Assembly (NCBI GenBank): GCA_963704755.1
Contig: OY969938.1
Coordinates: 2,490,001-2,522,000 of the forward strand
DNA length: 32,000 nt
Direction: 5' to 3'
Source: an uncultured Chloroflexia bacterium
GTDB lineage: Bacteria; Chloroflexota; Anaerolineae; Anaerolineales; Anaerolineaceae
Part shown: in pieces, positions 8,034-31,682 of the stretch
Layout of the letters: every line of letters begins with the position of its first letter
How positions within the stretch are numbered: position 1 is the stretch's first letter
The notes under the pieces: model-generated
The model's input: only the letters and a program-made list of their open reading frames with translations
Database searches by the model: none
What the model was told of the DNA's origin: nothing
Translations under genes and position numbers: made by a program

Positions 8034-8082
8034 GAATGGGTGATTAAATCAGGTTGAAAAAGACATCAAAAAGGAGGAACAA

Positions 8083-10582: not shown

Positions 10583-10631
10583 TTCTTCCATTTATGACAC
10601 AGAAGAAAAAATTATTTCATCTGCAAATGAA

Positions 10632-11147: not shown

Positions 11148-11272
11148 GCGGTGCACATTATGCAAGAGATTACACTGATTGGGTAGGTTTCAGCTTTGCG
11201 CTTGAAAATTTCAAAAATATAATCGATTATTTTTATCCATCAATAATTTCAACAAAAACAAGAGAAATCCTG

Positions 11273-14305: not shown

Positions 14306-14360
14306 TTTTTGAAATACCCTGTGTAATAATAGTGGTGAACACTTTAGATTTACCAAATCC

Positions 14361-16685
14361 ATGCTATCCAATAAAGTTGCCGAGGGGATCATGCTTCAAC
14401 AAGTGGTTAAAGATCGGATCTTAAAATCCTACGAAAATAAACAAAATTCGGGTGATCTCCCATCCGCCCAACAACTCGAAACATACTATCGATTATTCCG
14501 GCAAAGATTTGGCCCTAATACCCTCTCGGGCTTGGATGGCGAGCCCTTACTCAACCTAATGTACGATCTTGGCAATCGAGACAGCCTGGTGTATTGGCTG
14601 GAATACAAAAACGATGCTGAATTCCCGGCAATTTTTGGCAGTATCGCCGGCGGGAGTGCTTTGAAATATGGAATCTTTCGTCGAAGAGAAACAGGGGCTT
14701 GGACAATCGGATCACCTCAAAAGCAGGTTGAAATATCGGTTGCTGAAGCCATAGAAATCGCTCGGCGGAATTGGGATCAATTGATGAAAGGTGTTTTCAT
14801 TCTTCAAAACCTTCCTGATTCATCCGAGGATGCAGTTTATTTCAAACTGCAAGAAGATTTACACAAAGAAGCGCCAGGTGTCCAAGATTCCCTTTGGGGA
14901 CACAAGTATTTTCACCTGCTATTTCCGGAAAAGCTGGACACTTTTCATATGGAGAATTTACAGCAGTTTCATTTGATCAAGTTACTTCAAATGCCTCCTG
15001 AGAAAACCGGCCGCTATACATGCGCCGGCCGGTTCGTGGCCCTGGCACGTGAATGTGGCTTATCGATGAATATCCTGACGACTGTTCTCAACGATATCGA
15101 TGGGCGGCTTTATCGCTACTGGAGAATGGGAACACATGGAGGAGAAGACAACAGAAGTTATTGGAGCGAAATGGAACAGGGGAGTTACGTTTCGATTGGC
15201 TGGGATAAATTGGGAGATCTGTCTTGGCTTGAATTCAATAAAGAATTGAAAGAAAAATTTTTTAAATTGGTTTTGGATAAATACAAGAAAGATCCAGCCG
15301 TAACCGGTGGCACAGTCTCAAAAATTTTCAATTTTGTGGTTGGTATGCAAGAAGGTGATATCGTTCTAGGTGCTGATGGTAGACGCATTCAAGGTGTTGG
15401 CAGGGTTGTAGGGGGATATGAGTATCAACCCAATGGCGAATTTCCACATCACCGCCAGGTCGAATGGCTCACATTAGATCCTTGGGAATTACCTCAAACA
15501 GAGGGTCTTCAGTTTGCTATATACGCAATGAAGAAGCCTGAAAATTTAATTGCTATTGAAGAACGACTCCTCCAATATCCCGGAAAGCCCAGAAAACCTT
15601 TTATTGAAAGTGAGGGAGGTGGTTCAAGACGAACGGTACATCTTGAAGGAATATCTGGCCGGATTCAAGCTGTTTTGGATCGGAAGAAGCAAATCATTCT
15701 ATATGGCCCTCCAGGTACCGGAAAAACGTATTGGGCCAATCGCACTGCGAAAGATTTAGGGGCTTATTCTATGTTCGGAAAGTCTTTTTCAGAAATAATC
15801 GAAACCGAGAAACAGAAAATTCTAGGAAAATTTGGAGAAAAAAACGGGGTTGTCAGGCGTTGCACTTTCCATCCGGCTTATGGGTATGAAGATTTCATCG
15901 AGGGTTACCGACCTGTCTCGACCAACGGTCAATTGAGTTTCGAGAAACGCTCGGGGATATTTAAAACCATTTGTGAGGATGCACAAAAAAATCCTAATCA
16001 ACCTTATTATTTGATAATCGATGAAATCAATCGCGGAGATTTACCACGGATATTTGGGGAGCTGCTGACATTGCTGGAAAAGGATAAAAGAGGGCAGTCT
16101 ATCATTCTTCCTCTCAATGGAGATCTCTTTCAGGTCCCAGAAAATGTTTTCGTGATCGGCACGATGAACACTGCTGACCGTTCGATTGCTCTGCTAGATA
16201 CAGCTCTTCGCAGGAGGTTTGGCTTTTTAGAGCTAATGCCCGATTCGAGTTTATTGAACTTATCCATTGAGGGGTTACCATTAGGCCCTTGGCTGGATGC
16301 ATTGAATGAACGGATCCGTACCCATATCGGAAAGGATGCGCGAAATTTACAAATTGGGCATGCTTATTTTTTTGAGGGAGAGAAACCAATTAACGACAAG
16401 TTACGTTTTGTCCGAGTTTTACGCGAAGACATATTACCCTTGTTGGAAGAATATTGCTATGAAGATTATGACAACTTAAGTGAAATTCTTGGGGATCAGA
16501 TTGTTGATGCAAAAAGCCAAAGATTTAGGGAGGAGGTTCTATCACCAGAGCGTTGGGATCAATTGCTCATTGCTCTGCTTGGCCCAAATCGCGAAGTAAC
16601 AACCTCTAAAGAAGTAATTCAAACCCAGCAAAATGAACTCGAAGATCAATTAGACGAGGATACCCTAGATGTTGAATCCAATTAA
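14361..16685 (+). CDS. mcrB: McrB-like AAA+ GTPase with a long N-terminal putative DNA-reader region
   Basis: Motifs: ILYGPPGTGKTYWA, LIIDEINRGDLPRIFGELLTLLE, VIGTMNTADRSIALLDTALRRRFGF. An alternative start is ATG 14391, behind GAGGGG. Confidence 0.85.
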   Translation: MLSNKVAEGIMLQQVVKDRILKSYENKQNSGDLPSAQQLETYYRLFRQRFGPNTLSGLDGEPLLNLMYDLGNRDSLVYWLEYKNDAEFPAIFGSIAGGSALKYGIFRRRETGAWTIGSPQKQVEISVAEAIEIARRNWDQLMKGVFILQNLPDSSEDAVYFKLQEDLHKEAPGVQDSLWGHKYFHLLFPEKLDTFHMENLQQFHLIKLLQMPPEKTGRYTCAGRFVALARECGLSMNILTTVLNDIDGRLYRYWRMGTHGGEDNRSYWSEMEQGSYVSIGWDKLGDLSWLEFNKELKEKFFKLVLDKYKKDPAVTGGTVSKIFNFVVGMQEGDIVLGADGRRIQGVGRVVGGYEYQPNGEFPHHRQVEWLTLDPWELPQTEGLQFAIYAMKKPENLIAIEERLLQYPGKPRKPFIESEGGGSRRTVHLEGISGRIQAVLDRKKQIILYGPPGTGKTYWANRTAKDLGAYSMFGKSFSEIIETEKQKILGKFGEKNGVVRRCTFHPAYGYEDFIEGYRPVSTNGQLSFEKRSGIFKTICEDAQKNPNQPYYLIIDEINRGDLPRIFGELLTLLEKDKRGQSIILPLNGDLFQVPENVFVIGTMNTADRSIALLDTALRRRFGFLELMPDSSLLNLSIEGLPLGPWLDALNERIRTHIGKDARNLQIGHAYFFEGEKPINDKLRFVRVLREDILPLLEEYCYEDYDNLSEILGDQIVDAKSQRFREEVLSPERWDQLLIALLGPNREVTTSKEVIQTQQNELEDQLDEDTLDVESN

Positions 16686-18003
16686 TCAGGTAGAGCAATC
16701 ACAACAGGTAAACTTGTATTTATCAGAATGGACCATAGCTACTCCTGAAACTCATCCAGTTTTAGAGGGTTTTTCTTTCGAGAATGAGCTTCCTGCTCGA
16801 CAGATGGCTCAACGGCTAAGTGGATCAAGTCAAGTAGAGTTCTTGGAATTGACTAACGGGTTGGAAATTCGCACAAATTCAGTGGTAGGCAGCATTCGTC
16901 TTGGTAACCTATCCTTAACAATTACTCCGAAAATTAACGGGTTACCTTTATTCCGATTGATCCGCTTTGCTTATGGATTACGGGATCTGGAATTCTTTAC
17001 TGCGCAGAATTTCAGCAATCAATACCTGGCTTTCCAGGATTTATTGATTCTCCAACTCGTTTTGGAAGTTCAAGAGCTTTTTAGTCGAGGATTATTGCGC
17101 AACTACATTCGGAAAGAGGAGAAGCTTGCCAGCCCGGTTGGGAGAATAAATTTTCAACAAATTGCGAAACAAGGCGGATTGGTAGAAGCATCATTACCTT
17201 GTACAAATTCCATCCGCCTGGAAAATTGTCTTCATAATCGTGTAATCCTCTCCGGGTTAATTTTGGCTAACCAGTTTACTAGAGATATTTCTTTAAAAAG
17301 TTCTACCCGTCAGCTTGCCAAATTATTTATCCAAAGCATCGAAAAGGTGCGGTTGAATTTTGACATCCTCAGGCAGGTTGAGCGCGAATTGAACCGGCTC
17401 ACCGAGGCGTACAATCCTGCCTTGAGACTGATAGCATTATTGTTGGGTAATATTGGTGTATCAACTGATGAAGACCGTAATCAAGTACAGGTAAATGGCT
17501 TCCTCTTTGATATGAACCATTTCTTCCAGGCTTTGCTTTCAAGGTTGCTTAATAACTACCTGGATGGGTATGAGGTTGAAGATGAGCATAAACTAAAAGG
17601 ACTTCTAGCATTCGTACCCGGATATAAATTACCCGGTCGGCTTGACGCGATGCCCAGGCCAGATTTTGCCATATTCGAGAAAGGAAAGCTACTTTCGCTA
17701 TTCGATGCCAAGTACCGGGACCTTTGGAACACTGGTCTGCCTAGAGATATGCTCTATCAGCTCATCGTGTATGCACTAAGTCAGAAGGTAGAACGAAAAG
17801 CCACAATCCTTTATCCAAGCCTGGACGAAATTTCCAAGGATGCGATTATTCAAATCAATGAACCCATACAAGGTTCTGCAAATGGACATATTATTTTACG
17901 CCCCGTCAATTTACATAGAATGGAAAGCATAATCGTTGAAAAAAGAACCGATGAATTGAAATCATTCACTCACCAATTGATTTTTAAGGAACTTCTTAAT
18001 TAG
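16669..18003 (+). CDS. mcrC: McrC-like PD-(D/E)xK nuclease subunit
   Basis: It overlaps the mcrB end by 17 nt. The nuclease core is PDFAIFEKGKLLSLFDAKYRDL. Size and position are typical of McrC. Confidence 0.8.
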   Translation: MLNPINQVEQSQQVNLYLSEWTIATPETHPVLEGFSFENELPARQMAQRLSGSSQVEFLELTNGLEIRTNSVVGSIRLGNLSLTITPKINGLPLFRLIRFAYGLRDLEFFTAQNFSNQYLAFQDLLILQLVLEVQELFSRGLLRNYIRKEEKLASPVGRINFQQIAKQGGLVEASLPCTNSIRLENCLHNRVILSGLILANQFTRDISLKSSTRQLAKLFIQSIEKVRLNFDILRQVERELNRLTEAYNPALRLIALLLGNIGVSTDEDRNQVQVNGFLFDMNHFFQALLSRLLNNYLDGYEVEDEHKLKGLLAFVPGYKLPGRLDAMPRPDFAIFEKGKLLSLFDAKYRDLWNTGLPRDMLYQLIVYALSQKVERKATILYPSLDEISKDAIIQINEPIQGSANGHIILRPVNLHRMESIIVEKRTDELKSFTHQLIFKELLN

Positions 18004-18174
18004 ACCCCAACTAAACAAATTTGCTGAAATTATCTTCACCAATACAAGCTGTAAATTAACGGCGAAGATGGCAAGCATGGATCGGATTCTTACATTTCAA
18101 AGGCTTAAATTCTCAAACTCGTATTTCGCTAATTTTCTGAACTCTTAATAACATTTATCATCATCTCCTTCCTT

Positions 18175-18315
18175 ACCGGCATCTCGATTGATCCGGATGC
18201 AGATACCGTAACGGTCACGGTCTCCGCCGACCTCTCGGTACTTTTCCCCTCGGTGGTACCGCAAGTGATCGTCAGCGAAACGGGCACCGCCCAGGTGCGG
18301 GCTTTCTCCAGGTAA
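18175..18315 (+). pseudogene. orphan 3' fragment (46 codons plus stop) of a TadG-like gene
   Basis: It reads TGISIDPDADTVTVTVSADLSVLFPSVVPQVIVSETGTAQVRAFSR*. There is no upstream coding continuation because the flank is A+T-rich island DNA. Twelve nt differences from copy A give only one amino-acid change. Confidence 0.75.
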
Positions 18316-18530
18316 CCAATGGAGGAAGAACCTTTCAAATCCAGGCGGTTCTTGCTGGTACGCAGTGAGGACGAGAGCGGCGTCTCCGGAGTTGGGATCG
18401 TGGCCGAAGGGGTCCAGTTTCAGAGCGGGCGGGTGGTCATGGAATGGCAGGTGGCGCCGTACTCGATTGGAATTTATGGGTCAATCGAGGAGGTGATTGA
18501 GGTCCATGGGCATGGGGGAAAGACAAGGGT
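18175..18530 (+). repeat. direct repeat copy B
   Basis: See copy A. It aligns at a constant offset of 11708 without indels. Confidence 0.9.
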
Positions 18531-18546
18531 CTTACGATTGGCATGA
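18319..18546 (+). CDS. conserved hypothetical 75-aa protein (copy B)
   Basis: Paralogue of 6611..6835. The C-terminus differs (KTRVLRLA versus KTKVMGA). Confidence 0.55.
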   Translation: MEEEPFKSRRFLLVRSEDESGVSGVGIVAEGVQFQSGRVVMEWQVAPYSIGIYGSIEEVIEVHGHGGKTRVLRLA

Positions 18547-18690
18547 CCCATTTGGGTGATTTCTCTGGATGTAAAAAAAGCGAGTTGTTAAAAGGATTCT
18601 GTCTTTCGCCCTGGAATTATTCGGATATTCCACTTTTACCAGGAGGAAGATTTTCGGGATAAATAATCGATTAATTTCTCTCCGAAAAGT

Positions 18691-18719
18691 TTGCCCTGTC
18701 GTGAGAATCTGAGTATATT
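18691..18719 (+). promoter_or_regulatory. sigma70-like promoter candidate upstream of hsdM
   Basis: TTGCCC (18691-18696), a 17-nt spacer, then TATATT (18714-18719). It lies about 90 nt upstream of the hsdM ATG. Confidence 0.3.
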
Positions 18720-18806
18720 AAAATGTATACTATGCAGGGGGTTGCCCACTGATCACCAACCAATCATTGCCTGTAGCAGGCAAAGACCTCTTACCGGAAC
18801 GGACTC

Positions 18807-20340
18807 ATGCCTAAGAACAATCAAAAAAGTAAAAACGGGAACGGCGCTGCGCTGGGAATTGAACACGAACTATGGGAGGCGGCCGACAAGCTGCGCGGCC
18901 ACCTGGACGCGGCCGATTACAAGTCGGTGGTGCTGGGGCTGATCTTTCTCAAGTATGTCTCGGACATGTTCGAGCAGGTGCGTGCCCGTGTGGAGGAAGA
19001 GGGCTTGGACGATCCCGAGGACCGCGACGTGTACCTGGCGGAGCGGACCTTCTGGGTGCCCAGGGACGCGCGCTGGAAGGTCCTGCAGGACAATGCCAAG
19101 CAGGAATCGATCGGCAACCGGATCGACCAGGCCATGGAGGCCATCGAGCGGGACAACCCCTCGTTGAAAGGCATGCTCCCCAACAATTATGGTCGCGCCA
19201 CGCTGGACAAGCGCCGGCTGGGCGACCTGGTCGACCTGGTCAGCAACAAGATCAACTTTACTGACGAGGAAAGCCGCAAGCAGGATACGCTTGGGCGGGT
19301 GTACGAATACTTCCTCTCGCAGTTCGCCAGCCAGGAAGGCCGCAAGGGCGGCGAGTTCTACACGCCGCGCTCGGTGGTGCGTGTGCTGGTAGAAATGCTG
19401 GCTCCCTATAAAGGACGGGTCTTCGACCCGTGCTGTGGTTCGGGCGGGATGTTCGTGCAAAGCGAGAAGTTCGTCGAGGCGCACGGCGGCCGGGTGGGCG
19501 ACCTGTCGGTGTACGGACAGGAATCCAACCCCAACACCTTCAAGCTGGCCAGGATGAACCTGGCCATTCGCGGCATCGAGGGCGACCTGGGCAAGGAGCC
19601 GGCCGACTCGTTCCACCGCGACCAGCATCCCGACCTGAAGGCCGACTTTGTGCTGGCAAATCCGCCCTTCAATATGAGCGATTGGGGCGGCGATCTGCTG
19701 CGCGAGGACAAACGCTGGCAGTACGGCCTGCCACCGGCCGGCAACGCCAACTTCGCCTGGGTGCAGCACTTCATCCACCACCTCTCGCCCAACGGGGCGG
19801 CCGGCTTTGTGCTGGCCAACGGCAGTATGTCGAGCAACACCTCCGGAGAAGGCGAGATCCGCAAGAACATCATCGAGGCCGACCTGGTGGACTGCATGGT
19901 GGCCCTGCCGGGGCAGTTGTTCTACAGCACGCAGATCCCGGTGTGCCTGTGGTTTTTAGCCAGGAACAAGAAGAACCGCGGCGGGCAGACCCTGTTCATC
20001 GACGCGCGTAAGCTGGGCACACTGACCGACCGGGTGCACCGCGACCTGAGCGACGAGGACATCGCCCAGATTGCCGGCACCTTTCACACCTGGAAGAAGG
20101 GCCAGGGCTACGCAGATGTACCCGGCTTTTGCAAATTGGTTTCGATTGAAGAAATCCGTGCGCAGGGTTACGTGCTCACGCCTGGGCGTTATGTAGGTGC
20201 AGCGGAACTGGAGGAAGACGACGAGCCATTTGGTGAAAAGATTGCAAGATTTAACAAGAGAGTTGGAAGAGCAGTTTGAAGAAGGGAGGAGATTAGAAGA
20301 CCTTATTAGTAAAGGGCTAAAAAAACTTGAATATGAATAA
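18807..20340 (+). CDS. hsdM: type I R-M N6-adenine DNA methyltransferase HsdM (frame breaks near 20250; annotated stop 20279, repaired stop 20340)
   Basis: The N-terminus is [33 protein letters not shown]. Motif I is [11 protein letters not shown] and motif IV is LANPPFN. After ...FGEKIAR the +1 frame reads [29 protein letters not shown], a typical HsdM C-terminal helix that overlaps the hsdS ATG. Confidence 0.9.
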
Positions 20341-21490
20341 AGAATGGGAATTGGTTAGGATTGGAGAAATTTGCGAAGCCATCTTCGATGGACCACACGC
20401 CACGCCTAAGAAAACAACCAAAGGCCCAATTTTTCTCGGTATTTCGAATCTTCAAAATGGAAGAATCGACCTTTCGGATGTCGATCACCTTTCGGAAGAT
20501 GATTTTATCAACTGGACCCGAAGAGTTACTCCCCGAGAAAATGATGTAGTTTTTTCATATGAAACACGCTTGGGTGAAGCAGCAATTGTTCCTAAAGGCC
20601 TGAGGTTTTGTCTGGGTCGGCGTATGGCATTGATACGTCCTAATACACAAAAAGTAGATCCCCGCTTTTTGCTTTATTCATACCTGGGGCCAGAGTTTCA
20701 ACAGACCCTGCAGGCACGAACAGTTCACGGAAGCACAGTAGATAGAATTCCGCTTATCGAATTTCCCGATTTTCCAATTTCTATACCTCCTCTTTCTGAA
20801 CAACGCGCCATTGCAGGGATTCTCGGTGCGCTGGACGACAAGATCGAACTCAACCGACGCATGAACCGCACGCTCGAGTCCATTGCACAGGCGGTGTTTC
20901 GAGAATTAATGAAGGATGAAGACGGAAAGATAACGACTGGTAAGGTTGGAGAAGAATACAATTTGACAATGGGACAATCGCCGCCAGGTGAAACTTATAA
21001 CGAAGAAGGTGTAGGGACTCCTTTCTATCAAGGGCGTCGAGATTTCGGCTTTAGGTATCCAGAAAATCGCGTTTATTGCACTGCCCCCACAAGGTACGCA
21101 AAATCGGGTGATACCCTTGTTAGCGTTAGGGCTCCTGTTGGTGATATTAATATGGCAAAGGAAGATTGTACAATCGGCAGAGGAGTTGCTGCAATCAGGC
21201 ATAAAACAGGTAGTCGTTCTTACACTTACTATGCAATGAAATACCTCGAAAACGATTTTAAGAGTTTTGAAGCAGAAGGAACAGTTTTTGGCTCAATAAA
21301 TAAAGCAGATTTCCAAAATCTTGAAATTAGCATCCCTACAATTGAACAGGTACAGAAATTTGAAGAAATTTGCTTCCCGATCGACCAAATGATCGAGAAC
21401 AATGAAAAAGAAACCCACACGCTGGCTAATCTGAGAGATAGTCTGCTGCCAAAGTTGATGCGAGGCGAAGTGCGTGTGAAGGATGTCTGA
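20333..21490 (+). CDS. hsdS: type I R-M specificity subunit HsdS (two target-recognition domains)
   Basis: WELVRIGEICEAIFDGPH...IPPLSEQRAIAGILGALDDKIELNRRMNRTLESIAQAVF is the central conserved region, and ...LANLRDSLLPKLMRGEVRV is the C-terminal conserved region. The gene is A+T-rich, unlike hsdM and hsdR. Confidence 0.9.
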   Translation: MNKEWELVRIGEICEAIFDGPHATPKKTTKGPIFLGISNLQNGRIDLSDVDHLSEDDFINWTRRVTPRENDVVFSYETRLGEAAIVPKGLRFCLGRRMALIRPNTQKVDPRFLLYSYLGPEFQQTLQARTVHGSTVDRIPLIEFPDFPISIPPLSEQRAIAGILGALDDKIELNRRMNRTLESIAQAVFRELMKDEDGKITTGKVGEEYNLTMGQSPPGETYNEEGVGTPFYQGRRDFGFRYPENRVYCTAPTRYAKSGDTLVSVRAPVGDINMAKEDCTIGRGVAAIRHKTGSRSYTYYAMKYLENDFKSFEAEGTVFGSINKADFQNLEISIPTIEQVQKFEEICFPIDQMIENNEKETHTLANLRDSLLPKLMRGEVRVKDV

Positions 21491-21593
21491 ACTATGATTG
21501 GAATGATTTTTGGATGGACTATGAGTGAACCGGGACGCATGGATAGGACCTTTGCATTCAGCTAAATCGTGATCCCAGACCAGGGGAAAAGGC

Positions 21594-22019
21594 ATGATCA
21601 ACGAACAATATCTCCACTCAGAATTGACGGGTAAAATCATCGGTTGCGCGATGGAAGTCCACAAAACGCTGGGGAACGGATTCCAGGAAGTCATCTATCA
21701 ACGTGCGTTGGAAATCGAAATGAGTCAGCAGGGACTGGCGTTCAGCCGCGAGCACGAAATGGACATTTTCTATAAAGGCGCCAAGATCGGCAATCGCCGC
21801 GTGGATTTCTTTGTAGAGGAGAAAATCATGGTTGAGATCAAGGCGATCATTCAATTGGAGGACGTTCACCTGGCCCAGGCCATCAACTATTTGGAAGCCT
21901 ACGGACTAGAAGTTGGTCTGCTGCTCAACTTTGGCAGCCGCAGCTTGCAATTCAAACGGGTCATGAAGCCAACAGGAGATCATGCAAAAATGCCTCGTCT
22001 AAATCAAAGTCCATCATAG
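21594..22019 (+). CDS. GxxExxY protein (PD-(D/E)xK-like, TIGR04256-type)
   Basis: SELTGKIIGCAMEVHKTLGNGFQEVIYQRALEIEM...DFFVEEKIMVEIKA...QAINYLEA...GLLLNFG is the characteristic pattern, including GFQEVIY. Confidence 0.85.
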   Translation: MINEQYLHSELTGKIIGCAMEVHKTLGNGFQEVIYQRALEIEMSQQGLAFSREHEMDIFYKGAKIGNRRVDFFVEEKIMVEIKAIIQLEDVHLAQAINYLEAYGLEVGLLLNFGSRSLQFKRVMKPTGDHAKMPRLNQSPS

Positions 22020-22061
22020 AATCATGGAAATCATAGTTCAAGACAATGCGTACATGCTACG

Positions 22062-22101
22062 GTTGATGCGGGGTGAAGTGCGCGTGAAGGATGTGGAGTA
22101 A
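22062..22101 (+). pseudogene. relic 3' end of an hsdS gene
   Basis: It reads (L)MRGEVRVKDVE*. Positions 22062-22094 match 21454-21486 (the real hsdS 3' end) at 30 of 33 nt. Confidence 0.65.
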
Positions 22102-22103
22102 AA

Positions 22104-23633
22104 ATGGAAGCTAAACTTACTGAGAACGCGCTAGATGCAGATTTTGTAGCTAATGGTCTTCTACGACACAATTATTTTCCAACCCAAAAGGAAGATAAAG
22201 ACGAATTACCTCAAGTCTTCACATCAACGGATCTTACTGTCGAATTAGCTAATCAAATAATAACTGGGAAACGCAGAAAAAAAGATGGTTTCGATACAAT
22301 TGAATATAAACTAACACGTTTCAATGGTGTTTCGAGAATATGTTCTATACCACATCCAGCAGCATATGCCGATCTTGCCATCTGTATTCGAGATAATTGG
22401 AGTTCAATAAAATATATATCTCAGAATGAAAAAAGCGTAATAAAACCTCAAAAACATGACGATGGGCGCATCATTATTATGGATTACGAAAGTTCAATTT
22501 TTAGAGAACGGCGCCAATTAAAATCAATGTTTTCTCGGCGATTCATGGTTAAAACGGATATATCAAATTGTTATCCAACTATTTACTCTCATGCAGTACC
22601 TTGGGCTCTTGTGGGTTTTGATGATGCGAAAAAGAAGAAAGGCCAACGCACAAATTGGTTTAATCAATTAGATGAAAAAGTCCGTTGGATGAAGCGAAAT
22701 GAGACGCAGGGTATCGCCATAGGTCCTGCAACTTCTAATATTATTTCTGAAATCATTTTGGCTCGAATTGATGAAAAAGCAGTGGACAATCCAGATTACG
22801 TTAAATTCATTGATGATTATACTGGGTATTTTTCAACCGAAAGTGATGCACAAAAATTTATTCGGGAATTGGAAGATAGCCTCGGAAAATATAAACTGCT
22901 TTTAAATTTAAAAAAGACACAAATTATTGAATTGCCCCAACCGTTATCAGATGATTGGATAACAGAACTCACTTTGCGTTTGCCAAAATCAAACGAAACA
23001 TACACAGTTACTCGTAATGAGGCTATACGATTTCTAAATTTTGCCGTGGGGTTATCGAAACAATCTCCAGATGGGAGTGTTATGAAATATTCTCTAAAGA
23101 GCATATTGAAGCAATCAATAGAAGAATCAGCGAAGATTGACATTTTACATTTTGCACTTCAATTATGCTTTCATAACCCAATACTTATTCCTTTAATTAA
23201 AAACATCTTGGCGGATCTTGACGAAAACGAGTTTGAAGAGGTCAGACCTCAATTGGAAGAACTTGCCATTCAAAACGCGATGTTTCATCGCTCAGATGGC
23301 ATGGTTTGGCCTCTTAGCTTTTTAGGATCAAGAAAAACTAATATCTCTGAAAGAGTTGTAGAGGAAGTTATTAAAACCAGGGATTGTTTACCATTGCTTA
23401 TGGTTTATGAATATGGCAATAAAAGCCAAAAAACGAAAATCATTCAAATCGCAGAAGAAATTATTAGTCATTCGGATAATTATGAAATTGATCAGTACTG
23501 GATGCTTCTATATCAGTTGTTCCTAGATGAAAAGATTTCAAATCCCTACAAAGATGAAGATTGCTTTGAGATTTTAAAAGTGTCAAATGTGTCATTCGTA
23601 AAAAACGAAGTCAATCGAACAGAAAATGTCTGA
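22104..23633 (+). CDS. Abi/UG-class (defence-associated) reverse transcriptase with an all-helical C-terminal domain
   Basis: Palm motifs: A = FMVKTDISNCYPTI (Asp codon 22557-22559), B = QGIAIGPATSNIISEI, C = KFIDDY (DD codons 22812-22817). There is no maturase, RNase H or integrase part. The 509-aa size and helical tail resemble single-gene AbiK/Abi-P2-type RTs. Confidence 0.8.
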   Translation: MEAKLTENALDADFVANGLLRHNYFPTQKEDKDELPQVFTSTDLTVELANQIITGKRRKKDGFDTIEYKLTRFNGVSRICSIPHPAAYADLAICIRDNWSSIKYISQNEKSVIKPQKHDDGRIIIMDYESSIFRERRQLKSMFSRRFMVKTDISNCYPTIYSHAVPWALVGFDDAKKKKGQRTNWFNQLDEKVRWMKRNETQGIAIGPATSNIISEIILARIDEKAVDNPDYVKFIDDYTGYFSTESDAQKFIRELEDSLGKYKLLLNLKKTQIIELPQPLSDDWITELTLRLPKSNETYTVTRNEAIRFLNFAVGLSKQSPDGSVMKYSLKSILKQSIEESAKIDILHFALQLCFHNPILIPLIKNILADLDENEFEEVRPQLEELAIQNAMFHRSDGMVWPLSFLGSRKTNISERVVEEVIKTRDCLPLLMVYEYGNKSQKTKIIQIAEEIISHSDNYEIDQYWMLLYQLFLDEKISNPYKDEDCFEILKVSNVSFVKNEVNRTENV

Positions 23634-23779
23634 CAACACACTGTACCAACAAAATAAATATACTCATGCCGGCCCAGCGGCGGAAAGAGTTATTGTCTTT
23701 GCTGGAAGCTTTTTTACATGCCAGGCTACGTCCGCGATATGAGGGATAAGAGTAGGAATAGAATTTCTTAAGGAGGTTA

Positions 23780-23842
23780 ATGATGAAAGCGTTAGGAAAA
23801 ACGACCGAAACAGAACAACAAAATTTCAGTACAATATATTAA
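23780..23842 (+). CDS. micro-ORF (20 aa) with a canonical SD
   Basis: AAGGAGG (23770-23776) precedes ATGATG at 23780. It encodes MMKALGKTTETEQQNFSTIY*. Coding status is unproven. Confidence 0.25.
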   Translation: MMKALGKTTETEQQNFSTIY

Positions 23843-23873
23843 AACTGTTTTTTTGAGCAGGAGGGGTGGAATT

Positions 23874-24374
23874 ATGATTGAAATTGTTTCCAACCTTTTT
23901 ATCGGTAATGAACAAGATTATGAGTATCGAGTAAAGGGACAGACTGGCTGGAGAGTAGTCCATGCTTGTAAAGAGCCATATCACCGGCAAGCACTTGGAT
24001 ATAAGTCTCGTGGAGCTCCTAAAGATCACCCAGAATACCTAATTGCACAAAGAGGTGATCGCCTTATTCTAAATTTAGTAGATGCTCCCAGCCCTGCTTT
24101 TATTCCAAAAGAAATAATTGATGGTGCTCTTGAGTATATACATAAAGGATTAAGCGAAGGTCGAAAAGTTTTGGTTCATTGCAACCTTGGTGAATCGCGT
24201 TCCCCGAGTATTGGGCTACTCTATTTAGCAATATATACCAATATACTTCCAGATGAGTTTGCCTCGGCGGAACAAAAATTCCACGAAATATACCCCTTAT
24301 ATAATCCTGGTGCGGGTATCCGAGGATTTGTTATAAGCAATTGGGACTTGTATCAATCACGAAAGGAGTGTTGA
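23874..24374 (+). CDS. Cys-X5-Arg (dual-specificity/PTP-like) phosphatase
   Basis: AGGAGG lies 7 nt before ATG 23874. The N-terminus IVSNLFIGNEQD and the P-loop VLVHCNLGESRSPSIGLLYL (HCxxGxxRS) are present. Confidence 0.8.
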   Translation: MIEIVSNLFIGNEQDYEYRVKGQTGWRVVHACKEPYHRQALGYKSRGAPKDHPEYLIAQRGDRLILNLVDAPSPAFIPKEIIDGALEYIHKGLSEGRKVLVHCNLGESRSPSIGLLYLAIYTNILPDEFASAEQKFHEIYPLYNPGAGIRGFVISNWDLYQSRKEC

Positions 24375-24376
24375 CT

Positions 24377-25958
24377 GTGAAACTAACATTCTATCTTTTC
24401 AACGATACAGTTCATGATTTCAATGGCGCTCTTGACCTGGACAAACTAGATGAAGAAGAGGGATTTAAAGAAATTGAGTTGATCGAGGGTTTGCCGTTTG
24501 TGGCCAAGGCATATTTTCAACAAAATAAAAAGACAAAACCCCAATGGTTAGATTTTATAAAAGACTATGTCAAGGTAAATGAGGAAGAAGTATTCAATAC
24601 AACAAATTCATTTCTGCTACTCATAATGTGTGAAAACAGAATCTTTGCGATTAATCAGGGTTTTGGCTTTTTAGCCCTTAATCGTAAAAAGCTTGAGAAG
24701 GGATTTGGCCTAAAGGTTGTTCTGAATGAGATTGACCCCCAAAAAATTAAAAGTGTTGAAGCAAGGAATATAGACACAACAACAAAACAAAAAAGAGTCT
24801 TAATAAACAGAAGTAGTCCTCTTTACGAATTTGATTTTGATTTCGATGAGGATTTAGTGAGTATCATTTCTGGACGGCCCAGCGATGCAGCGCTTGCCCG
24901 TAAATTGATGGGATCTGATTCTCTAAGTCTTAATGCGGATATTGAATTTGTAGATTTAGGCGAAAAGTGTTTGCAACTTCTTATTTCTTTTAACAAAGAT
25001 AATTACCACCAGAATTTCCCTTTTATTGATTACTTACAAGTTGTAAGGGATGAAGAGTTACTTGTACAACTTGAGGATGTTTTAAAGACCAACATTAATA
25101 ACCGAGACCCAGAAAATCTAAATCTGGCATACCCTGAAATACCCGATTTTGAGCAAATTGAGAATTTCAAGATATGGTCTGGTCACGATCATAATTTTGT
25201 AGAGGATGTTGATATAACACAACTCTTCAATTTTCTGGATGAATATGAACTTGATTGTGATGTGGAAGGTATTTACATAAGTGGTGTGAACAGCGATGAG
25301 CAACAAGTAACTAAGAAGTTTAGCCTTCATGACTTCGTTGTTTTTGAAACAGTCTTTTCCGATACGCGGTATATATTATCATTGAACCAGTGGTTTGAAC
25401 TTGCTAGCGATTTCGTCGACAGGGTAAATCAAGAATTGATTCATATCCCAGAAATTGAGTCTGACTTTTTACCTGCCTTACACTATGGGGATAGAGAAGG
25501 CGCATATAATTCTTCTGTAGCGGAAAGTAGAACCGATATTGTTTCATTGGACAAAAATAATTACATGGTTGAAGGTGAAGGACAAAGTAGAATTGAGGTA
25601 TGCGATCTCCTGACGGAAAACAAAGAATTTATTTGTGTAAAGAAATACAACGGTTCTTCAACCTTAAGCTCACTTATTTAATCAAGGCTTTGTTAGCGCG
25701 ACCCTGCTTAATGATGAACAACGGTATCGCAATTTCATTATTTCTGAATGTCCTGCTGGATTTGTTGATCCTGTTATTACCGAAACAGGTTTGGAAAGAG
25801 AAAAGATTACTTTTGTTTTCGCAATCGCAACGGATACCACTGGGCCACTTGCTGAAAATTTACCATTCTTTAGCAAGGTTAATCTTGTTAAGACAAATAA
25901 AGCCATAAAACGAATGGGCTTTGATGTAAAAATTTATAAAATAGAAATCGTTCCTTAA
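24377..25958 (+). CDS. TIGR04141/DUF6119-like protein (frame breaks at about 25670; about 526 aa when bridged)
   Basis: GTG 24377 lies 8 nt after AAGGAG and 3 nt after the phosphatase stop. The listed ORF ends ...GSSTLSSLI*. The next frame, open from 25668, reads HLFNQGFVSATLLNDEQRYRNF...KIYKIEIVP* to 25958. The joined block IEVCDLL..ICVKK..SSTLSHLFNQG fits my recollection of this family. Confidence 0.65.
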
Positions 25959-25966
25959 GGTAATCC

Positions 25967-28900
25967 GTGCCTCATTTCACCGAATCCACCATTGAGCAAG
26001 CCACCATCGATTGGCTCACCGGCCTGGGCTACGAATACGCCTTCGGCCCGGAGATCGCCTGCGATGGCGAGCACCCCGAGCGCCGCGATTACCTGGAAAC
26101 GATCCTGGTGGGGCGGTTGCAGAGCGCCATTGCGCGCATCAACCGCGAGCTGCCGGCCCAGGCCCAGGAAGAGGCGCTCTACAAGGTCACTCATCCGGGC
26201 AAACCCTCGCTGCTGCTCAACAACCACGCCTTCCATCACCTGTTGATCAACGGGGTGGAGGTGGAATACAAGCGCAGCAGTCCTGTGGACAAGAATGAGG
26301 ATGGACGTACGGTTAACGGGCGGGCCTACCTGGTGGATTTCAGCGACCCGGACAACAACGACTGGCTAGTGGTCAACCAGTACACGGTGGAGGCCGCCCA
26401 CCAGAACGGCGTGGTCAACCGCCGGCCGGACGTGGTCATCTTTCTCAACGGGCTGCCGCTGGCAGTCATCGAGCTCAAGAACGCTGCCGATGAAAACGCC
26501 ACCATCTGGTCGGCTTTCAACCAGTTACAGACCTACAAGAACGACATCCCAGCCCTGTTCCACACCAACGAGCTGCTGATCGTCTCGGACGGGCTGAACG
26601 CCCGCTTCGGTTCGTTGACCGCCAACAAGGAATGGTTCCTGCCCTGGAAGACTATCGAGGGCGAAGCCACCGCACCGGCATCCATATCCCAACTGGAAGT
26701 GCTGCTCCAGGGTATGTTCGAGAAGCGCCGCTTCCTCGACCTGATCCGCTACTTCATCGTCTTCGAGCAGGAACGCGGCGCGCCGACGATCAAGAAAATC
26801 GCCGGCTACCACCAGTTCCATGCCGTCAATTACGCGCTGACCGAAACCATCCGGGCCTCGTACGACAAGGCCGAAGCGGTCAAAGAGTTGAAAGGCACCT
26901 ACCTGGCCGAACCCATGCGCGGCGGGCAAAAAGGCGACCATCGCATCGGCGTCATCTGGCATACCCAGGGTTCGGGCAAGAGCCTGACGATGGTTTTCTA
27001 TGCCGGCCGGCTGGCCTTGCATCCCGCGATGGAAAACCCTACCATCGTGGTCATCACCGATCGCAACGACCTGGACGACCAGCTCTTCGGCACCTTCTCG
27101 CGCTGCGCCGAGGTACTGCGCCAGACTCCCGAGCAGGCCGCCAGCCGCGAAGACCTGATCGAAAAACTCAAAGGACGCCGGGCGGGCGGGGTCTTCTTCA
27201 CCACCATCCAGAAGTTTATGCCCACAGCCGAATTGGGCGGCCCGCTTTCGGAGCGGAGCAATATCATCGTCATTGCCGACGAAGCCCATCGCAGCCAGTA
27301 TGATTTCATCGATGGCTACGCCCGTCACATGCGCGACTCCCTGCCTAACGCCTCCTTCATCGGCTTTACCGGCACACCCATCGAGCACACCGACGCCAAC
27401 ACCCGTGCCGTGTTCGGCGACTACATCAGCATCTACGACATCCAGCAGGCGGTCGAGGACGGCGCCACGGTCAAGATCTATTACGAAAGCCGGCTGGCCA
27501 AATTGGAGCTGGACGAAGCCGAAAAGCCAAAGATCGACCCGGAATTCGACGAGGTGACCGAGGGCGAAGAGCTGGAAAAGAAGGAAAAGCTCAAGACCAG
27601 GTGGGCCGCGCTGGAGGCCATCGTCGGCACCGAGAAGCGCATCGACCTGATCGCCAGGGACGTGGTGGACCACTTCGAAAAGCGCCTGGAAGTGCTGGAC
27701 GGCAAGGCCATGATCGTGTGCATGTCGCGCCGCATCTGTGTCGATCTGTATAACGCCATCATCCGGCTTCGCCCTGGTTGGCACTCCCGCGATGACAAGC
27801 AGGGCGTGCTTAAGATCGTGATGACCGGCAATGCCACCGATCCGCTGGATTGGCAGCAGCACGTGCGCACCAAAGCCCGCCGTGAGGAGCTGGCTTTGCG
27901 CTTCAAGGACCCTGCCGACCCGTTCAAGATCGTCATCGTGCGCGACATGTGGCTGACCGGTTTCGACGTGCCGCCCCTGCACACCATGTATATCGACAAG
28001 CCCATGCAGGGCCACGGGCTGATGCAGGCCATCGCGCGGGTCAACCGCGTGTACAAAGATAAGCCCGGCGGCCTGATCGTGGATTACCTCGGCCTGGCCT
28101 ACCACCTGCAAAAAGCGCTGGCCACTTACACCGAAGCCGGTCACCCGGCCGAGACCCCCAACCAGGAAGAAGCGGTCAACGAGCTGCTCAAGCGCTACGA
28201 GATCTGCAAGGGGCTTTTCCACGGCTTCGATTGGTCGAAATACTTTTCCGGCACAGCCCAGGAACAGCTCGGCGTGCTGCCGATGGCAATGGAGCACATC
28301 CTCACCCTGGAGGACGGCAAGAAGCGCCTGCTGCAGGCTGTGCGCGAACTATCGCTGGCCTTTGCCCTGGCCGTCCCGGATGATCGCGCGCTGGCCATCC
28401 GCGACGACGTGGCCTTCTTCCAGGCCGTGCGCAGCGCCTTCGTCAAGTCCACGGTGGATGGCGAAAAGAGCGCCGAAGACCTGGACCAGGCTATCCGCCA
28501 GATCCTATCGCGAGCCGTCTCGGCCGGTGACCAGGTCATCGACATCTTCGCCGCCGCCGGCCTGAAAAAACCGGAAATATCTATCCTTTCGGACGAATTC
28601 CTGGCCGAAGTCAAAGGCATGCCGCAGAAGAACCTGGCCATCGAGCTGCTGCGCAAACTGCTCAACGACGAGCTCAAACAGCACATGAAAAAGAACCTGG
28701 TGCAGTCGCGCTCCTTCACCGAGATGCTCGAACGGACCATCCGTTCCTATCAGAACCGCACTATCGAGTTGGCCGAGGTGATCGCTGAGCTGATCAAGCT
28801 GGCCGAAGAGATGCGCGAAGCCCAAAAACGCGGCGAGCGGCTCAACCTCAGTGAGGACGAGATCGCCTTTTACGACGCGCTGGAAGTCAACGATAGCGCG

Positions 28901-29131
28901 GTCAAAGTGTTAGGCGACGAAACGCTCAAGATGATCGCCCAAGAGCTGGTAGAAACGGTGCGCAACAACGCCACCATCGACTGGACCGTGCGGGAGACGG
29001 TCCGCGCGCGGCTAAGATTGATGGTGAAACGGATACTGCGGAAGTACGGTTATCCGCCTGATAAGCAGGAGAAGGCCACCTATACCATCCTCGAGCAGGC
29101 CGAGGTTATCGCGAAGGATTGGGCGGGATGA
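25967..29131 (+). CDS. hsdR: type I restriction enzyme R subunit HsdR
   Basis: The N-terminus is [19 protein letters not shown]. Also present: [13 protein letters not shown] (Walker A), [10 protein letters not shown] (DEAH), GFTGTPI and QAIARVNR. A long helical C-terminal domain follows. Confidence 0.95.
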
Positions 29132-30042: not shown

Positions 30043-31251
30043 ATGCAACCGGTTTGTCACGGCCGGTCCGGAAAGGTAGGCGGGGCTATGGCAGCCAATT
30101 CACCAACCCCATTGACCGCCCAGGAGCAGCGCACGGAACGCGCACGCGAAGCGCTGCGGGCGAACACTTTCCGCATCGCCCCGATAGGTGCGGATACCTG
30201 GTCGGTAAAGAACGGCGACAAGGTGCCCTACACCGTCCGGCACGTGGAAAACAACTGGAACTGCACCTGCCCGGATTTCTCCCAATTCGGCCCGTCCATT
30301 CGCTGCAAGCACGTCGAAGCGGTGCGCATCATTCAGGAGGAAAACGGTAACAGTGTCCCTACTATTGAGCCACCCATAGGCAACGAGGCCGAAAATGATT
30401 CGGCCCGCATCCGCAATGAACTCAACAAACCACTGGATATGGCCCGCGTCAAGCGCCGCCAGGCTCCCGGCAAAGGGACGGTTCCTTACCTGGAAGGGTA
30501 CGAGATGATCCAGCGCGCCAACGAGATCTTCGCGTTTGGCTGGTCTTTCGACCTGCTGAAGGATCCCACCATTATCCGCTGGCAAAAGACGCAAACCCAA
30601 TACAGCCAACAGCAGCGTTGCAAAGTACCCGTCCTGGACGATCAGGGCCGGCCGCTGCTGGAAGAGGTCGGGATCGTCTGGATCACCGGGAAGGTCACGG
30701 TCGAGCTAGACGGCAGGCCGATCTGCCATGCCGACGTAGGGCGCTGCAGCTTCACCGGCGACACCCCCGAGGCGCTCGACATGGCCATCGCCGGCGCTGC
30801 TACGGATTGCCTGAAGCGCTGCCTGCGCCAGTTTGGCGACCAGTTTGGCCTGTCCCTTTACGACAGGGACGTGGCCCAGACGGCCGGGTTGGAGCGAGGT
30901 AATGGGCATGCGAATAGTCACGCGAGCAGCTCCCCCGGTGGGAATGGCGGTTCCACCGCCCAACCTGCCGGTCGAACGACCCGCCAGACTCCCCCGGCGA
31001 AGTCGTCTGCACCTACGAGCGCTTTCGAAGCGGGTAAAGTGATCTTCACCCTTAAGCCCAAGACTCGCCCCGAGCTGTCCGGAAAAACGCTGGCCGAATT
31101 GCAAAGGCAGGCCCCGGATATCCTGGCCTGGCTGGCCAGCGATTACACCCCCACATCCGAGACTCAGGCGTTGAAAGATGCCGCCCGGCTGTTGGTCCAA
31201 TCCAAAGCCCGGGAGGACAAGGTCATCGCCGATCTTGGTTTCCGCAACTGA
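30043..31251 (+). CDS. SWIM zinc-finger / Rad52-Rad22-type single-strand annealing protein fusion
   Basis: The SWIM motif is CTCPDFSQFGPSIRCKHVEAV (CxC-x11-CxH). The Rad52-like core runs VPYLEGYEMIQRANEIFAFGWSFDLL...GDTPEALDMAIAGAATDCLKRCLRQFGDQFGLSLYD. The start is uncertain (ATG 30043 or 30088). Confidence 0.75.
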   Translation: MQPVCHGRSGKVGGAMAANSPTPLTAQEQRTERAREALRANTFRIAPIGADTWSVKNGDKVPYTVRHVENNWNCTCPDFSQFGPSIRCKHVEAVRIIQEENGNSVPTIEPPIGNEAENDSARIRNELNKPLDMARVKRRQAPGKGTVPYLEGYEMIQRANEIFAFGWSFDLLKDPTIIRWQKTQTQYSQQQRCKVPVLDDQGRPLLEEVGIVWITGKVTVELDGRPICHADVGRCSFTGDTPEALDMAIAGAATDCLKRCLRQFGDQFGLSLYDRDVAQTAGLERGNGHANSHASSSPGGNGGSTAQPAGRTTRQTPPAKSSAPTSAFEAGKVIFTLKPKTRPELSGKTLAELQRQAPDILAWLASDYTPTSETQALKDAARLLVQSKAREDKVIADLGFRN

Positions 31252-31277
31252 CTTTTCAACACCCAAAGGAGCAAGAC

Positions 31278-31682
31278 ATGTATCACACGATCATCCTGGC
31301 CGGCAACCTGGGAAATGATCCGGTCATGCGCTATACCCCCAACGGACAGCCGGTGACCACATTTTCTGTGGCGACCAACCGCCAGCACAACCCGGCGGAT
31401 GGCAGCGGGCCGGTTAAAGAAACCACCTGGTTTCGCGTGACTACCTGGGGCAAGCAAGCCGAGGTCTGCAACGAGTACCTGCGCAAGGGTACCAAGATCC
31501 TGGTCGAAGGACGATTGACGCCTGACCCGGAAACGGGTGGGCCGCGCATTTTCAACCGGCAGGACGGGTCGGCCGGCGCTTCTTACGAAGTCACGGCCAC
31601 CACCGTGCGTTTTCTGTCCGCTAAACAGAACGACGAAACCAACAACCCGGCCGCCAATTCCACGGATGACATCCCTTTCTAA
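31278..31682 (+). CDS. ssb: single-stranded DNA-binding protein
   Basis: AAGGAG SD. The OB-fold reads IILAGNLGNDPVMRYTPNGQPVTTFSVATN...WFRVTTWGKQAEVCNEYLRKGTKILVEGRL. The acidic tip is DDIPF. Confidence 0.9.
   Translation: MYHTIILAGNLGNDPVMRYTPNGQPVTTFSVATNRQHNPADGSGPVKETTWFRVTTWGKQAEVCNEYLRKGTKILVEGRLTPDPETGGPRIFNRQDGSAGASYEVTATTVRFLSAKQNDETNNPAANSTDDIPF

Follow-up and report, generated by a model that had tools for sequence, protein, structure and literature searches.

A likely standing slot for exchangeable defense genes between hsdS and hsdR in a compositionally mosaic type I restriction-modification operon of an uncultured Anaerolineaceae bacterium

We analyzed a window of 32,000 nucleotides (nt) from an uncultured Chloroflexia bacterium of the family Anaerolineaceae (contig OY969938.1, positions 2,490,001–2,522,000 of the forward strand), which holds a type I restriction-modification (R-M) operon with A+T-rich genes lying between G+C-rich hsdM and hsdR genes. 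Our reading, to which we give a probability of roughly two in three, is that the interval from hsdS to the hsdR start is a standing slot for extra defense genes, that modules are exchanged within the operon family, and that the locus in this genome is decaying. The original prediction, made from this DNA alone, had the middle of the locus (20228–25966) exchanged as one cassette. Sequence comparison instead points to at least four separately acquired modules, each with a different closest relative: (1) the hsdM tail with hsdS; (2) a GxxExxY element with inverted repeats; (3) a remnant of an hsdS 3′ end with DRT4, a defense reverse transcriptase; and (4) a phosphatase gene with DUF6119. The features are as follows, with window positions, G+C fraction (GC), GC at third codon positions (GC3) and open reading frames (ORFs) where they apply.

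18807–20340, + strand: hsdM, type I methyltransferase; G+C-rich to ~20127–20228, restored frame ending at 20338–20340; body GC 0.617, GC3 0.825
20228–20340, + strand: A+T-rich hsdM C-terminal tail, consensus PFxxKMARLTKELEAQFEE...; GC 0.35 vs 0.56–0.63 upstream
20333–21490, + strand: hsdS, specificity subunit with two target-recognition domains; Methylase_S matched in two stretches; GC 0.438, GC3 0.379
21488–22040, + strand: GxxExxY/PDDEXK_3 element with ORF 21594–22019; TIGR04256 142 bits; GC 0.481, GC3 0.599, the exception among the cargo genes
22055–22101, + strand: remnant of another hsdS 3′ end, 2 nt ahead of the DRT4 ATG; peptide match, LLRLMRGEVRVKDVE followed by a stop
22104–23633, + strand: DRT4 (UG15) defense reverse transcriptase, apparently intact; GC 0.350, GC3 0.278
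23634–23873, + strand: DRT4-phosphatase spacer of 240 nt, read directly from the sequence
23874–24374, + strand: Cys-based dual-specificity-phosphatase-like gene; HCNLGESRS, the HCX5R signature; ORF open from TTG at 23853; GC 0.408, GC3 0.287
24377–25958, + strand: DUF6119/TIGR04141 gene, split into 24377–25681 and 25671–25958; GC 0.36, GC3 0.26–0.33
25967–29131, + strand: hsdR, type I restriction subunit, intact and G+C-rich from its first codons; GC 0.605, GC3 0.820

Domain matches agree with the gene list of the original prediction (hsdS, GxxExxY, reverse transcriptase, phosphatase and a TIGR04141-like gene, all on the + strand). The near-zero intergenic space that had been claimed holds for the outer junctions, hsdM/hsdS and DUF6119/hsdR (8 nt; 5–15 nt in the related loci L001, L082, L084, L170 and L173), and for phosphatase/DUF6119 (2 nt); it does not hold for the remaining internal gaps of 103, 84 and 240 nt.

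No two modules have their nearest relative in the same operon, although all of these operons belong to one hsd family. Three related loci (L087, L090 and L100) run hsdM-hsdS-GxxExxY-hsdR, and BLASTN of the window against related loci aligns positions 21401–22049 to them, the next aligned base being 25976; with respect to DRT4, the phosphatase gene and DUF6119, these sites are empty. Their GxxExxY proteins are 84–89% identical to that of the window. The closest DRT4 among the loci found (73%) lies in L166, directly behind the hsdS 3′ end, and is followed there by a 42-nt remnant of the hsdR 5′ end, a 198-codon ORF, which from its sequence alone we take to be IS200/RAYT-like, and then hsdR at 82%; L139 has a 44%-identical DRT4 between hsdS and hsdR. 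The closest DUF6119 proteins (64–74% identical; L001, L082/L083, L084/L085, L170/L169, L171 and L173/L172) are all encoded directly 5′ of an hsdR of the same family, and in L171, L084 and L001 the gene directly 5′ of DUF6119 is a homologue of the window phosphatase (77%, 71% and 60% identical, respectively). The order (phosphatase)-DUF6119-hsdR is collinear with window positions 23871–29130 in L001, L084, L171, L170 and L082. Every closest relative found of GxxExxY, DRT4, the phosphatase and DUF6119 belongs to a same-family operon with G+C-rich hsdM and hsdR. Separate closest relatives for frame and cargo, a test that the original prediction had named, were thus seen module by module, but not the unrelated A+T-rich donor that it had implied. 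The empty locus that it had asked for was found in part: the three loci above lack DRT4, phosphatase and DUF6119 but keep GxxExxY, and a few relatives, counted below, hold hsdS alone.

Frame and cargo also group differently. In a four-taxon comparison, the partner of the window is L082 by HsdM and HsdR (84% and 80% identity), whereas by DUF6119 it is L001 (75%), with L082 the most distant (65%), so that, judged by these identities, the two groupings disagree.

The remnant ahead of DRT4 forms a direct repeat (D6) in which 22055–22094 is 85% identical to the hsdS 3′ end at 21447–21486, and it is collinear with the intact hsdS-3′/DRT4 junction of L166, the alignment beginning at window position 22066. 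Comparable scars occur elsewhere in the family. Remnants of the hsdR 5′ end were found in 15 of 78 related loci, a count taken after three weak matches had been dropped; they are 11–35 codons long, 60–97% identical to the hsdR of their own locus, and sit 0.7–4.5 kb 5′ of the real hsdR. One lies directly after DUF6119 in L171, and extra hsdS-3′ ends are present in L084, L089 and L092. The order in L084 is hsdS, an ORF, an hsdS-3′ remnant, AAA_13, an hsdR-5′ remnant, phosphatase, DUF6119 and hsdR, and its AAA_13 cassette is fully framed by both remnant types. Since the joints hold duplicated pieces of the flanking genes, they point to homology-based insertion. We also noted two or three successive hsdR-5′ remnants per slot in L086 (5815–5908, 8062–8157) and L092 (413–505, 1945–1995, 4049–4099), as if cassettes had been stacked repeatedly.

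Two other ways of shuffling the locus were considered and rejected. An integron-like site-specific system would not account for joint repeats that are copies of hsdS-3′ or hsdR-5′ ends; no recombinase domain was detected in the Pfam-scanned ORFs at 7.4–31.7 kb, and no integrase or attC-like site was found. A phase-variable hsdS shufflon was discarded because hsdS sequence recurs only as the direct remnant of 47 nt; in inverted orientation, no hsdS repeat was detected.

The GxxExxY ORF is flanked by 37-nt imperfect inverted repeats (I1; 21488–21524 and 22004–22040) with the core AATCATAGTTCA, of which the left one provides the hsdS stop codon; a motif search found internal copies of AATCATAGTTCA in the element as well. 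In L087, L090 and L100, the element follows the hsdS stop, and its right repeat adjoins the hsdR ATG (AGAC[A/C]ATG). The window retains this ATG after its right repeat, with 6 nt separating it from the hsdS remnant. The element has the appearance of a small unit, mobile or palindromic, whose target is the hsdS/hsdR junction.

We propose that the hsdM C-terminal tail, the last ~45–70 nt of hsdS and the first ~35–105 nt of hsdR would serve as homology arms, through which operons of one family could trade modules and stack them up. With every module added, a short hsdS-3′ or hsdR-5′ duplicate could stay behind at the joint, and a single crossover with a fragment carrying cargo and one arm would be a possible route. 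The general idea of exchange at conserved gene ends, already part of the original prediction, is in keeping with the empty sites, the joint scars, a switch codon shared among relatives (see below) and the discordant frame and DUF6119 trees. The cargo would most likely be co-transcribed with the R-M genes, adding second-line defenses of the abortive-infection type; the phosphatase may modulate DUF6119, which may also be linked to the state of the restriction complex, as PrrC is. All members of the subclade would either inherit the A+T-rich middle or keep re-creating it.

That the slot is regularly occupied emerged from a metagenome scan with HsdR, in which 80 loci (62–86% identity) were compared out of at least 578 matches, most of these relatives being metagenome contigs. 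In the 52 loci with hsdM on the same contig, hsdM and hsdR are 1.3–8.8 kb apart. hsdS stands alone in only 4 of ~50 distinct relatives; the other ~46 have 1–6 further ORFs between hsdS and hsdR, nearly all co-oriented. Domains in this cargo include AAA_13/PDC-S06 (PrrC-type), Abi_C, Schlafen with HATPase_c_4, PDDEXK_3, nucleotidyltransferases, RhuM, GmrSD_N, Fic, TIR_2, deaminases and AAA_21. With defense-type cargo in most relatives, the carrier role, which the original prediction had seen in this one operon, is therefore the norm in this type I family. The relatives closest to the window by HsdR (81–88%, among the matches listed) carry different cargo sets. In L084, a pPIWI_RE (prokaryotic Argonaute-related) module lies directly 5′ of the related hsd operon (416–3091), which indicates that such operons themselves sit in larger defense islands.

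The compositional edges of the middle are sharp. The window-wide profile falls from ~63% to ~39% GC inside the hsdM 3′ end, and a two-segment maximum-likelihood analysis placed change points at 20127 (GC 0.635 to 0.453, 2-lnL support 20079–20237, likelihood-ratio statistic 62) and at 25965 (0.360 to 0.604, support 25949–26013, likelihood-ratio statistic 133); the last stop codon before hsdR is at 25956–25958 and the hsdR GTG at 25967. The original prediction had placed both switches correctly, the first (at about 20228) lying inside the support interval and the second at the hsdR start. Sliding 400-nt GC is 0.60–0.65 in hsdM, 0.41–0.50 past 20200, 0.33–0.49 up to 25800 and 0.59–0.63 in hsdR, and tetranucleotide usage correlates with the host flank at r 0.84–0.86 for hsdM and hsdR and at r −0.35 for the middle, so that the sliding-GC and tetranucleotide check gave sharp steps at both ends and no smooth profile. 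The hsdM tail groups compositionally with the middle. The cargo itself is uneven, with an extra change point at 22099, from GxxExxY to DRT4. The 12 kb 5′ of hsdM (6811–18836) are as A+T-rich as the middle (GC 0.391 and 0.390 on the two sides of hsdM, tetranucleotide r 0.95), and hsdM is therefore a G+C-rich islet whose left edge, 18836, coincides with the hsdM start. The DNA to the right of hsdR remains G+C-rich.

Several relatives switch at the same hsdM codon as the window, between an acidic linker (..EEDDE) and the PFxxKMARL tail. Across it, GC drops from 0.61 to 0.43 in L087, from 0.54 to 0.37 in L086, from 0.67 to 0.35 in L082, from 0.49 to 0.27 in L001 and from 0.50 to 0.36 in L084; the distant operons L139 and L122, G+C-rich throughout, have no GC drop in hsdM. 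The shared codon therefore suggests that the hsdM tail travels with hsdS. The HsdM C-terminal tail is reported to be necessary for assembly with HsdS, a role that would make such joint movement sensible. Recombination in the hsdM 3′ end, the route first proposed, is thus plausible as a recurrent breakpoint but not as a recent event here, because the window's tail has only ~76% DNA identity to the closest tail found.

The mosaic persists across considerable divergence. In all eight DUF6119-bearing relatives (62–88% HsdR identity), hsdM/hsdR GC3 is 0.60–0.76 and DUF6119 GC3 is 0.21–0.34, with flanks that are compositionally intermediate where visible. The most extreme is L173, from a metagenome-assembled genome labelled Ignavibacteria, in which DUF6119 (GC3 0.21) is separated by an 8-nt gap from hsdR (0.75 over its first 480 nt). 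The middles of the nine loci closest by HsdR lie 10–28 GC points under hsdM/hsdR, and those of distant loci ~0–12 points. Identity at four-fold degenerate sites between the window and its relatives is 43–60% for hsdM/hsdR (composition expectation 32–41%) and 30–45% for DUF6119 (expectation 27–30%). These sites are close to saturation yet the contrast persists; therefore, the mosaic is old or constantly renewed, and its presence in eight relatives speaks against an event fresh in this genome. By these measures the layout appears to be a habit of the lineage, not a one-off import. Family-wide, DUF6119 GC tracks host GC (r 0.88) at a mean of 8 points under the distal flanks, being lower in 68 of 71 genomes, and thus A+T-richness is not intrinsic to the gene. 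What keeps the contrast up may be constant renewal by exchange, or gene-specific pressure (biased conversion in the frame; selection or silencing acting on the cargo).

The frame is that of a type I system, with the expected domains in HsdM, in an HsdS with two target-recognition domains and in HsdR. HsdM matches Pfam N6_Mtase (PF02384, 7e-110) and HsdM_N (PF12161, 1.3e-26) and reaches 702 bits with PADLOC MTase_I; HsdR contains HSDR_N, SWI2_SNF2, T1R_D3-like and T1RH-like_C domains (PADLOC REase_I, 1111 bits) and is distant from the type IC EcoR124I HsdR (E 6e-32 over residues 120–505). HsdS is ~30% identical to the HsdS of relatives apart from its conserved centre, where 20783–20901 has 85–88% DNA identity with them, and its 3′ end. 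Consensus promoter and terminator scans gave counts below shuffle expectation with no internal excess, and were uninformative.

Two genes of the operon carry a +1 insertion, from mutation or sequencing error. In hsdM it lies near 20249–20251, so that the called ORF ends at 20279 and the last ~27 residues of the HsdM tail are replaced, leaving the three frame genes not all intact; when restored against five relatives, all of which are without the insertion, the family-type tail continues in the +1 frame to a stop at 20338–20340, overlapping the hsdS ATG at 20333. In DUF6119, the insertion is at ~25670, between the invariant residues K420 and H430, and is missing from the five relatives compared. 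The deposited annotation has a 434-aa truncated product where a single ORF of ~520 aa would be expected, and the position of the insertion makes the window's DUF6119 copy probably inactive. With both genes shifted, the locus looks partly decayed, as the sequence suggests, and new specificity together with extra immunity, the outcome first envisaged, is doubtful as a present function. hsdM is apparently frameshifted also in L171 (157–1632; a tblastn match in three pieces, 92%, 79% and 67% identical), and hsdM disruption may be recurrent in this lineage.

The DRT4 protein scores 565.3 bits against the Drt4 equivalog NF041749 (cut-off 450) and 619 bits against PADLOC Drt4. DRT4 as characterized is a single-gene abortive-infection system: a DNA-binding protein of the phage triggers it, and it synthesizes single-stranded DNA that is protein-primed and untemplated (PMC12783706). 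Y128, D152 and D237/D238 (FIDD) of the window protein are invariant across 31 homologues, and the priming Tyr125 and the YIDD motif of the reference protein are their counterparts (PMC12783706); the window DRT4 thus keeps its catalytic and priming residues. In the 240-nt spacer behind it, a G+C-richer stretch reads as a 27-codon ORF (MPAQRRKELLSLLEAFLHARLRPRYEG, then a stop), and a 20-codon ORF follows GGAGG. No similarity of the spacer to relatives or to the hsdR 5′ end was detected. The ORF stretch may be the remnant of a lost module.

The phosphatase matches DSPc at 1.9e-07, under the Pfam cut-off. DUF6119 is recognized in both of its frames (PF19614, 358.9 + 47.8 bits; TIGR04141, 346.7 + 76.7 bits, cut-off 35). 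Its C-terminal part carries the invariant residues D392, E405, D408, K420, H430 and Q434. An AlphaFold model built on 112 homologues (pLDDT 91) matches RdgC-type DNA-binding proteins (PDB 2owl, probability 0.90) and RdgC-like phage proteins (E 7.6e-06 to 6e-03, probability 0.87–1.00; the best, E 7.6e-06, in BFVD, where probabilities are 0.93–1.00), and its C-terminal part gives a weak match, the sole one to a nuclease fold, to the CdiA-CT/PD-(D/E)xK toxin nuclease 4g6u_A (probability 0.87, TM 0.34). Of a possible PD-(D/E)xK site, D392, E405, D408 and K420 are invariant, but the residue two before the Lys is Cys. Foldseek with the full-length model found no match in the PDB at E ≤ 0.001, and a profile search against PDB sequences gave nothing meaningful; phytochrome matches from Foldseek (probability ~0.1) were discarded. 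We interpret DUF6119, with moderate confidence, as a DNA-directed effector that may be a nuclease: one half would bind DNA in the manner of RdgC, and the C-terminal half has invariant acidic and lysine residues in a nuclease-like set. A search of the literature for DUF6119/TIGR04141 yielded incidental mentions only, and PADLOC has no model for it.

Across species-representative genomes we found at least 562 stretches matching DUF6119 and took 80 loci for comparison. In a tblastn screen, ~12–15 of these 80 lie between hsdM/hsdS and hsdR. The gene directly 5′ of DUF6119 is hsdS in 10 of 77 diverse genomes; elsewhere among them it is an HTH/Peptidase_M78 regulator, BrxL, MmeI, Mrr or an Abi protein, and DUF6119 is therefore a defense-island gene without an obligate partner. 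Within the subclade of the window, DUF6119 always adjoins hsdR, the location of a PrrC-type guardian (an effector inside the hsd operon, 5′ of hsdR), which would make PrrC-like coupling to the restriction complex a reasonable idea.

Several points weigh against our reading of the locus as a standing slot. The window has one scar only, and no hsdR-5′ remnant was detected in its middle at the DNA or the protein level. The scars in the family fit homologous or Campbell-type insertion without proving it, and no recombination event was directly observed. Exchange from an A+T-rich pool predicts cargo relatives in A+T-rich hsd operons, and these were found at 0 of 8 loci, so that exchange alone does not explain the persistence of the mosaic. 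Co-transcription is argued from an absence of evidence in consensus scans, and the two frameshifts leave the present activity of the locus unreadable. For DUF6119, the fold matches behind the nuclease assignment are weak and the motif departs from canonical (D/E)xK, and only ~13–19% of DUF6119 genes family-wide are in type I operons, so R-M coupling is no general requirement. A bolder version of the reading has the slot as an integrase-free cassette array built by hsdS-3′/hsdR-5′ crossovers with nested scars, DUF6119 (often with a Cys-phosphatase) as an R-M-coupled RdgC-like binder with a nuclease-like domain, and a GC3 contrast that is actively maintained (frame 62–82%, cargo 21–34% in eight diverged operons, across an 8-nt gap); we put this forward only tentatively, and think it possible but doubtful as a whole.

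A single recent import, by which a segment of an A+T-rich donor corresponding to 20228–25966 took the place of the middle in a resident G+C-rich hsd operon through one double crossover at the hsdM 3′ end and the hsdR start, would explain change points placed exactly at these two sites and the host-like tetranucleotides of hsdM and hsdR, whose GC3 here (82%, vs 60–76% in relatives) is raised while that of the cargo is not. We nevertheless find it unlikely: composition changes stepwise within the segment, which also contains an hsdS-3′ scar, and its parts differ in their closest relatives. The mosaic and the switch codon are shared by eight relatives whose four-fold sites are near saturation, and no donor-type, fully A+T-rich operon was found. 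Transfer may be dispensed with altogether if each gene sits at its own compositional equilibrium, the frame kept G+C-rich by, for example, GC-biased gene conversion in often-recombining genes, and the cargo made A+T-rich by drift or by selection, for example for low expression or for xenogeneic silencing of toxic effectors. Such an equilibrium fits a mosaic seen at 8 of 8 loci although four-fold identity is just 2–21 points above composition expectation, the shortfall of DUF6119 below its distal flanks, and middles that average 6 GC points under hsdM/hsdR (52 operons). It is at odds with the tracking of host GC by DUF6119, with the near-uniform composition of more distant operons and with hsdR GC, which shows no gradient with distance from the recombination arm, and the effects reported for GC-biased gene conversion are smaller than the 40–55 point GC3 gap; we consider it quite improbable.

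The reverse course of events, in which an A+T-rich defense island (6811 to at least 25966) arrived with A+T-rich hsdM and hsdR genes of its own that were later overwritten by G+C-rich, host-adapted alleles through gene conversion, draws on the equal A+T-richness of the DNA flanking hsdM and on a G+C-rich block that begins at the hsdM start. The continued G+C-richness to the right of hsdR does not fit it, however, and relatives in backgrounds of 43–54% GC have hsdM and hsdR that are G+C-richer than their own flanks; therefore, G+C-richness travels with the operon and is not host-imposed, and we judge this scenario very improbable. An assembly artefact, with chimeric joins of A+T-rich and G+C-rich organisms at conserved hsd sequences, comes to mind because the relatives are mostly metagenome contigs and conserved genes can seed chimeras. 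It is barely credible here: DRT4, the truncated DUF6119 and a host-flank gene (1237–2538) lie together on one NCBI/ENA contig of 4,871,623 bp, these junctions are found again in assemblies from JGI, ENA, Logan and NCBI, and they coincide with start and stop codons, leave reading frames intact and bear scars. We therefore retain the standing slot, with modules exchanged between related operons, as our preferred reading.

The surroundings are also rich in defense genes. A boundary at 6811 (6750–6832; GC 0.625 to 0.414) is the left edge of a co-oriented defense island in a ~66% GC genome; the scan of the window for tRNA genes found none, so there is no tRNA-anchored island edge. At 8771–14305, a PDC-S37/Hhe-type helicase-nuclease (DUF4011, AAA_11/12, MTES_1575, DUF3320) is spread over three + strand ORFs (8771–10582, 10632–11147 and 11273–14305) that jointly span one PADLOC model of 1550 positions, and is a third disrupted gene in A+T-rich DNA. 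A McrBC-like pair (14361–18003; GC 0.41–0.43), consisting of an AAA_5 ATPase (774 aa) and a McrC-family protein (444 aa), lies directly 5′ of the operon and co-oriented with it. Between McrC and hsdM is a G+C-richer patch (18200–18800; 0.55) with a 75-codon ORF (18319–18546) that matched no Pfam, PADLOC or NCBIfam family. 3′ of hsdR, a SWIM/Rad52-family protein (402 aa) and a single-stranded DNA-binding protein (SSB; 134 aa) are encoded at 30043–31682 (GC ~0.60); genes of this kind are typically found in prophages or integrative elements, and the defense island as a whole may therefore be carried by a larger mobile element.

Embedding of defense genes in type I operons is already known. PrrC provides a precedent (PMC12707154), and in TgvAB a GmrSD-like type IV system is embedded in the type I R-M cluster of Vibrio cholerae VPI-2 (PMC11411939). 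As in EcoprrI/PrrC, where an anticodon nuclease is embedded in a type IC hsd operon, and in the related RloC/rlo genes, an abortive-infection effector gene lies here inside a type I operon, 3′ of the modification and specificity genes and 5′ of hsdR, co-oriented and presumably co-expressed, and relatives of the operon carry AAA_13 (PrrC-type) genes in the same slot (for example L084). Unlike PrrC-bearing operons, the window has no AAA_13/PrrC homologue by Pfam scan, its cargo being DRT4, the phosphatase, DUF6119 and GxxExxY, and its HsdR resembles the type IC EcoR124I protein only remotely. The likeness to TgvAB is that a complete, independent defense system interrupts a type I operon to give layered immunity, although the cargo of the window is known from sequence only, its proteins differ, several modules are stacked and recombination scars are present. 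The window DRT4 resembles the described systems in its equivalog-level match, the conserved Asp pair and priming Tyr, and a C-terminus of alpha-Rep length. DRT4 has been described as stand-alone, in contexts that include variable regions of P2/P4 prophages and the Helicobacter accessory genome (PMC12783706; bioRxiv 10.1101/2021.12.02.470933), whereas it is operonic inside type I R-M in the window, L166 and L139; the UG/Abi survey used type I R-M operonization only as a general signature of defense association (bioRxiv 10.1101/2021.12.02.470933). As in integron arrays and P2/P4 satellite hotspots, a fixed promoter-proximal slot gathers interchangeable defense genes of one orientation, but in place of the integrase and attC-like sites of integrons the joints here are duplicated pieces of flanking genes. 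The target-recognition domains of hsdS reassort by recombination within type I families, with crossovers in the conserved segments on either side of variable ones. Similarly, the centre and 3′ end of hsdS are 83–88% DNA-identical between operons with unrelated recognition domains; unlike that reassortment, whole extra genes are exchanged here, and the arms reach the hsdM tail and the hsdR 5′ end.

Three features appear to be new: the scale and modularity of embedding in this family, where hsdS-3′ and hsdR-5′ scars can still be read; the regular presence of DUF6119 next to hsdR, whether or not the phosphatase gene accompanies it, along with the use of that slot by DRT4; and the persistence of the compositional mosaic across deep divergence. 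Collectively, our results would make embedding a systematic and modular process in this family, where PrrC and TgvAB had been single cases, and would offer a concrete route by which defense genes may move between operons without a dedicated mobile element. They nominate DUF6119/TIGR04141 as a candidate defense effector with a defined genomic partner, hsdR, and sometimes the phosphatase, and the 40–55 point GC3 contrast within one operon would provide a small, clean test case for the base composition of accessory genes.

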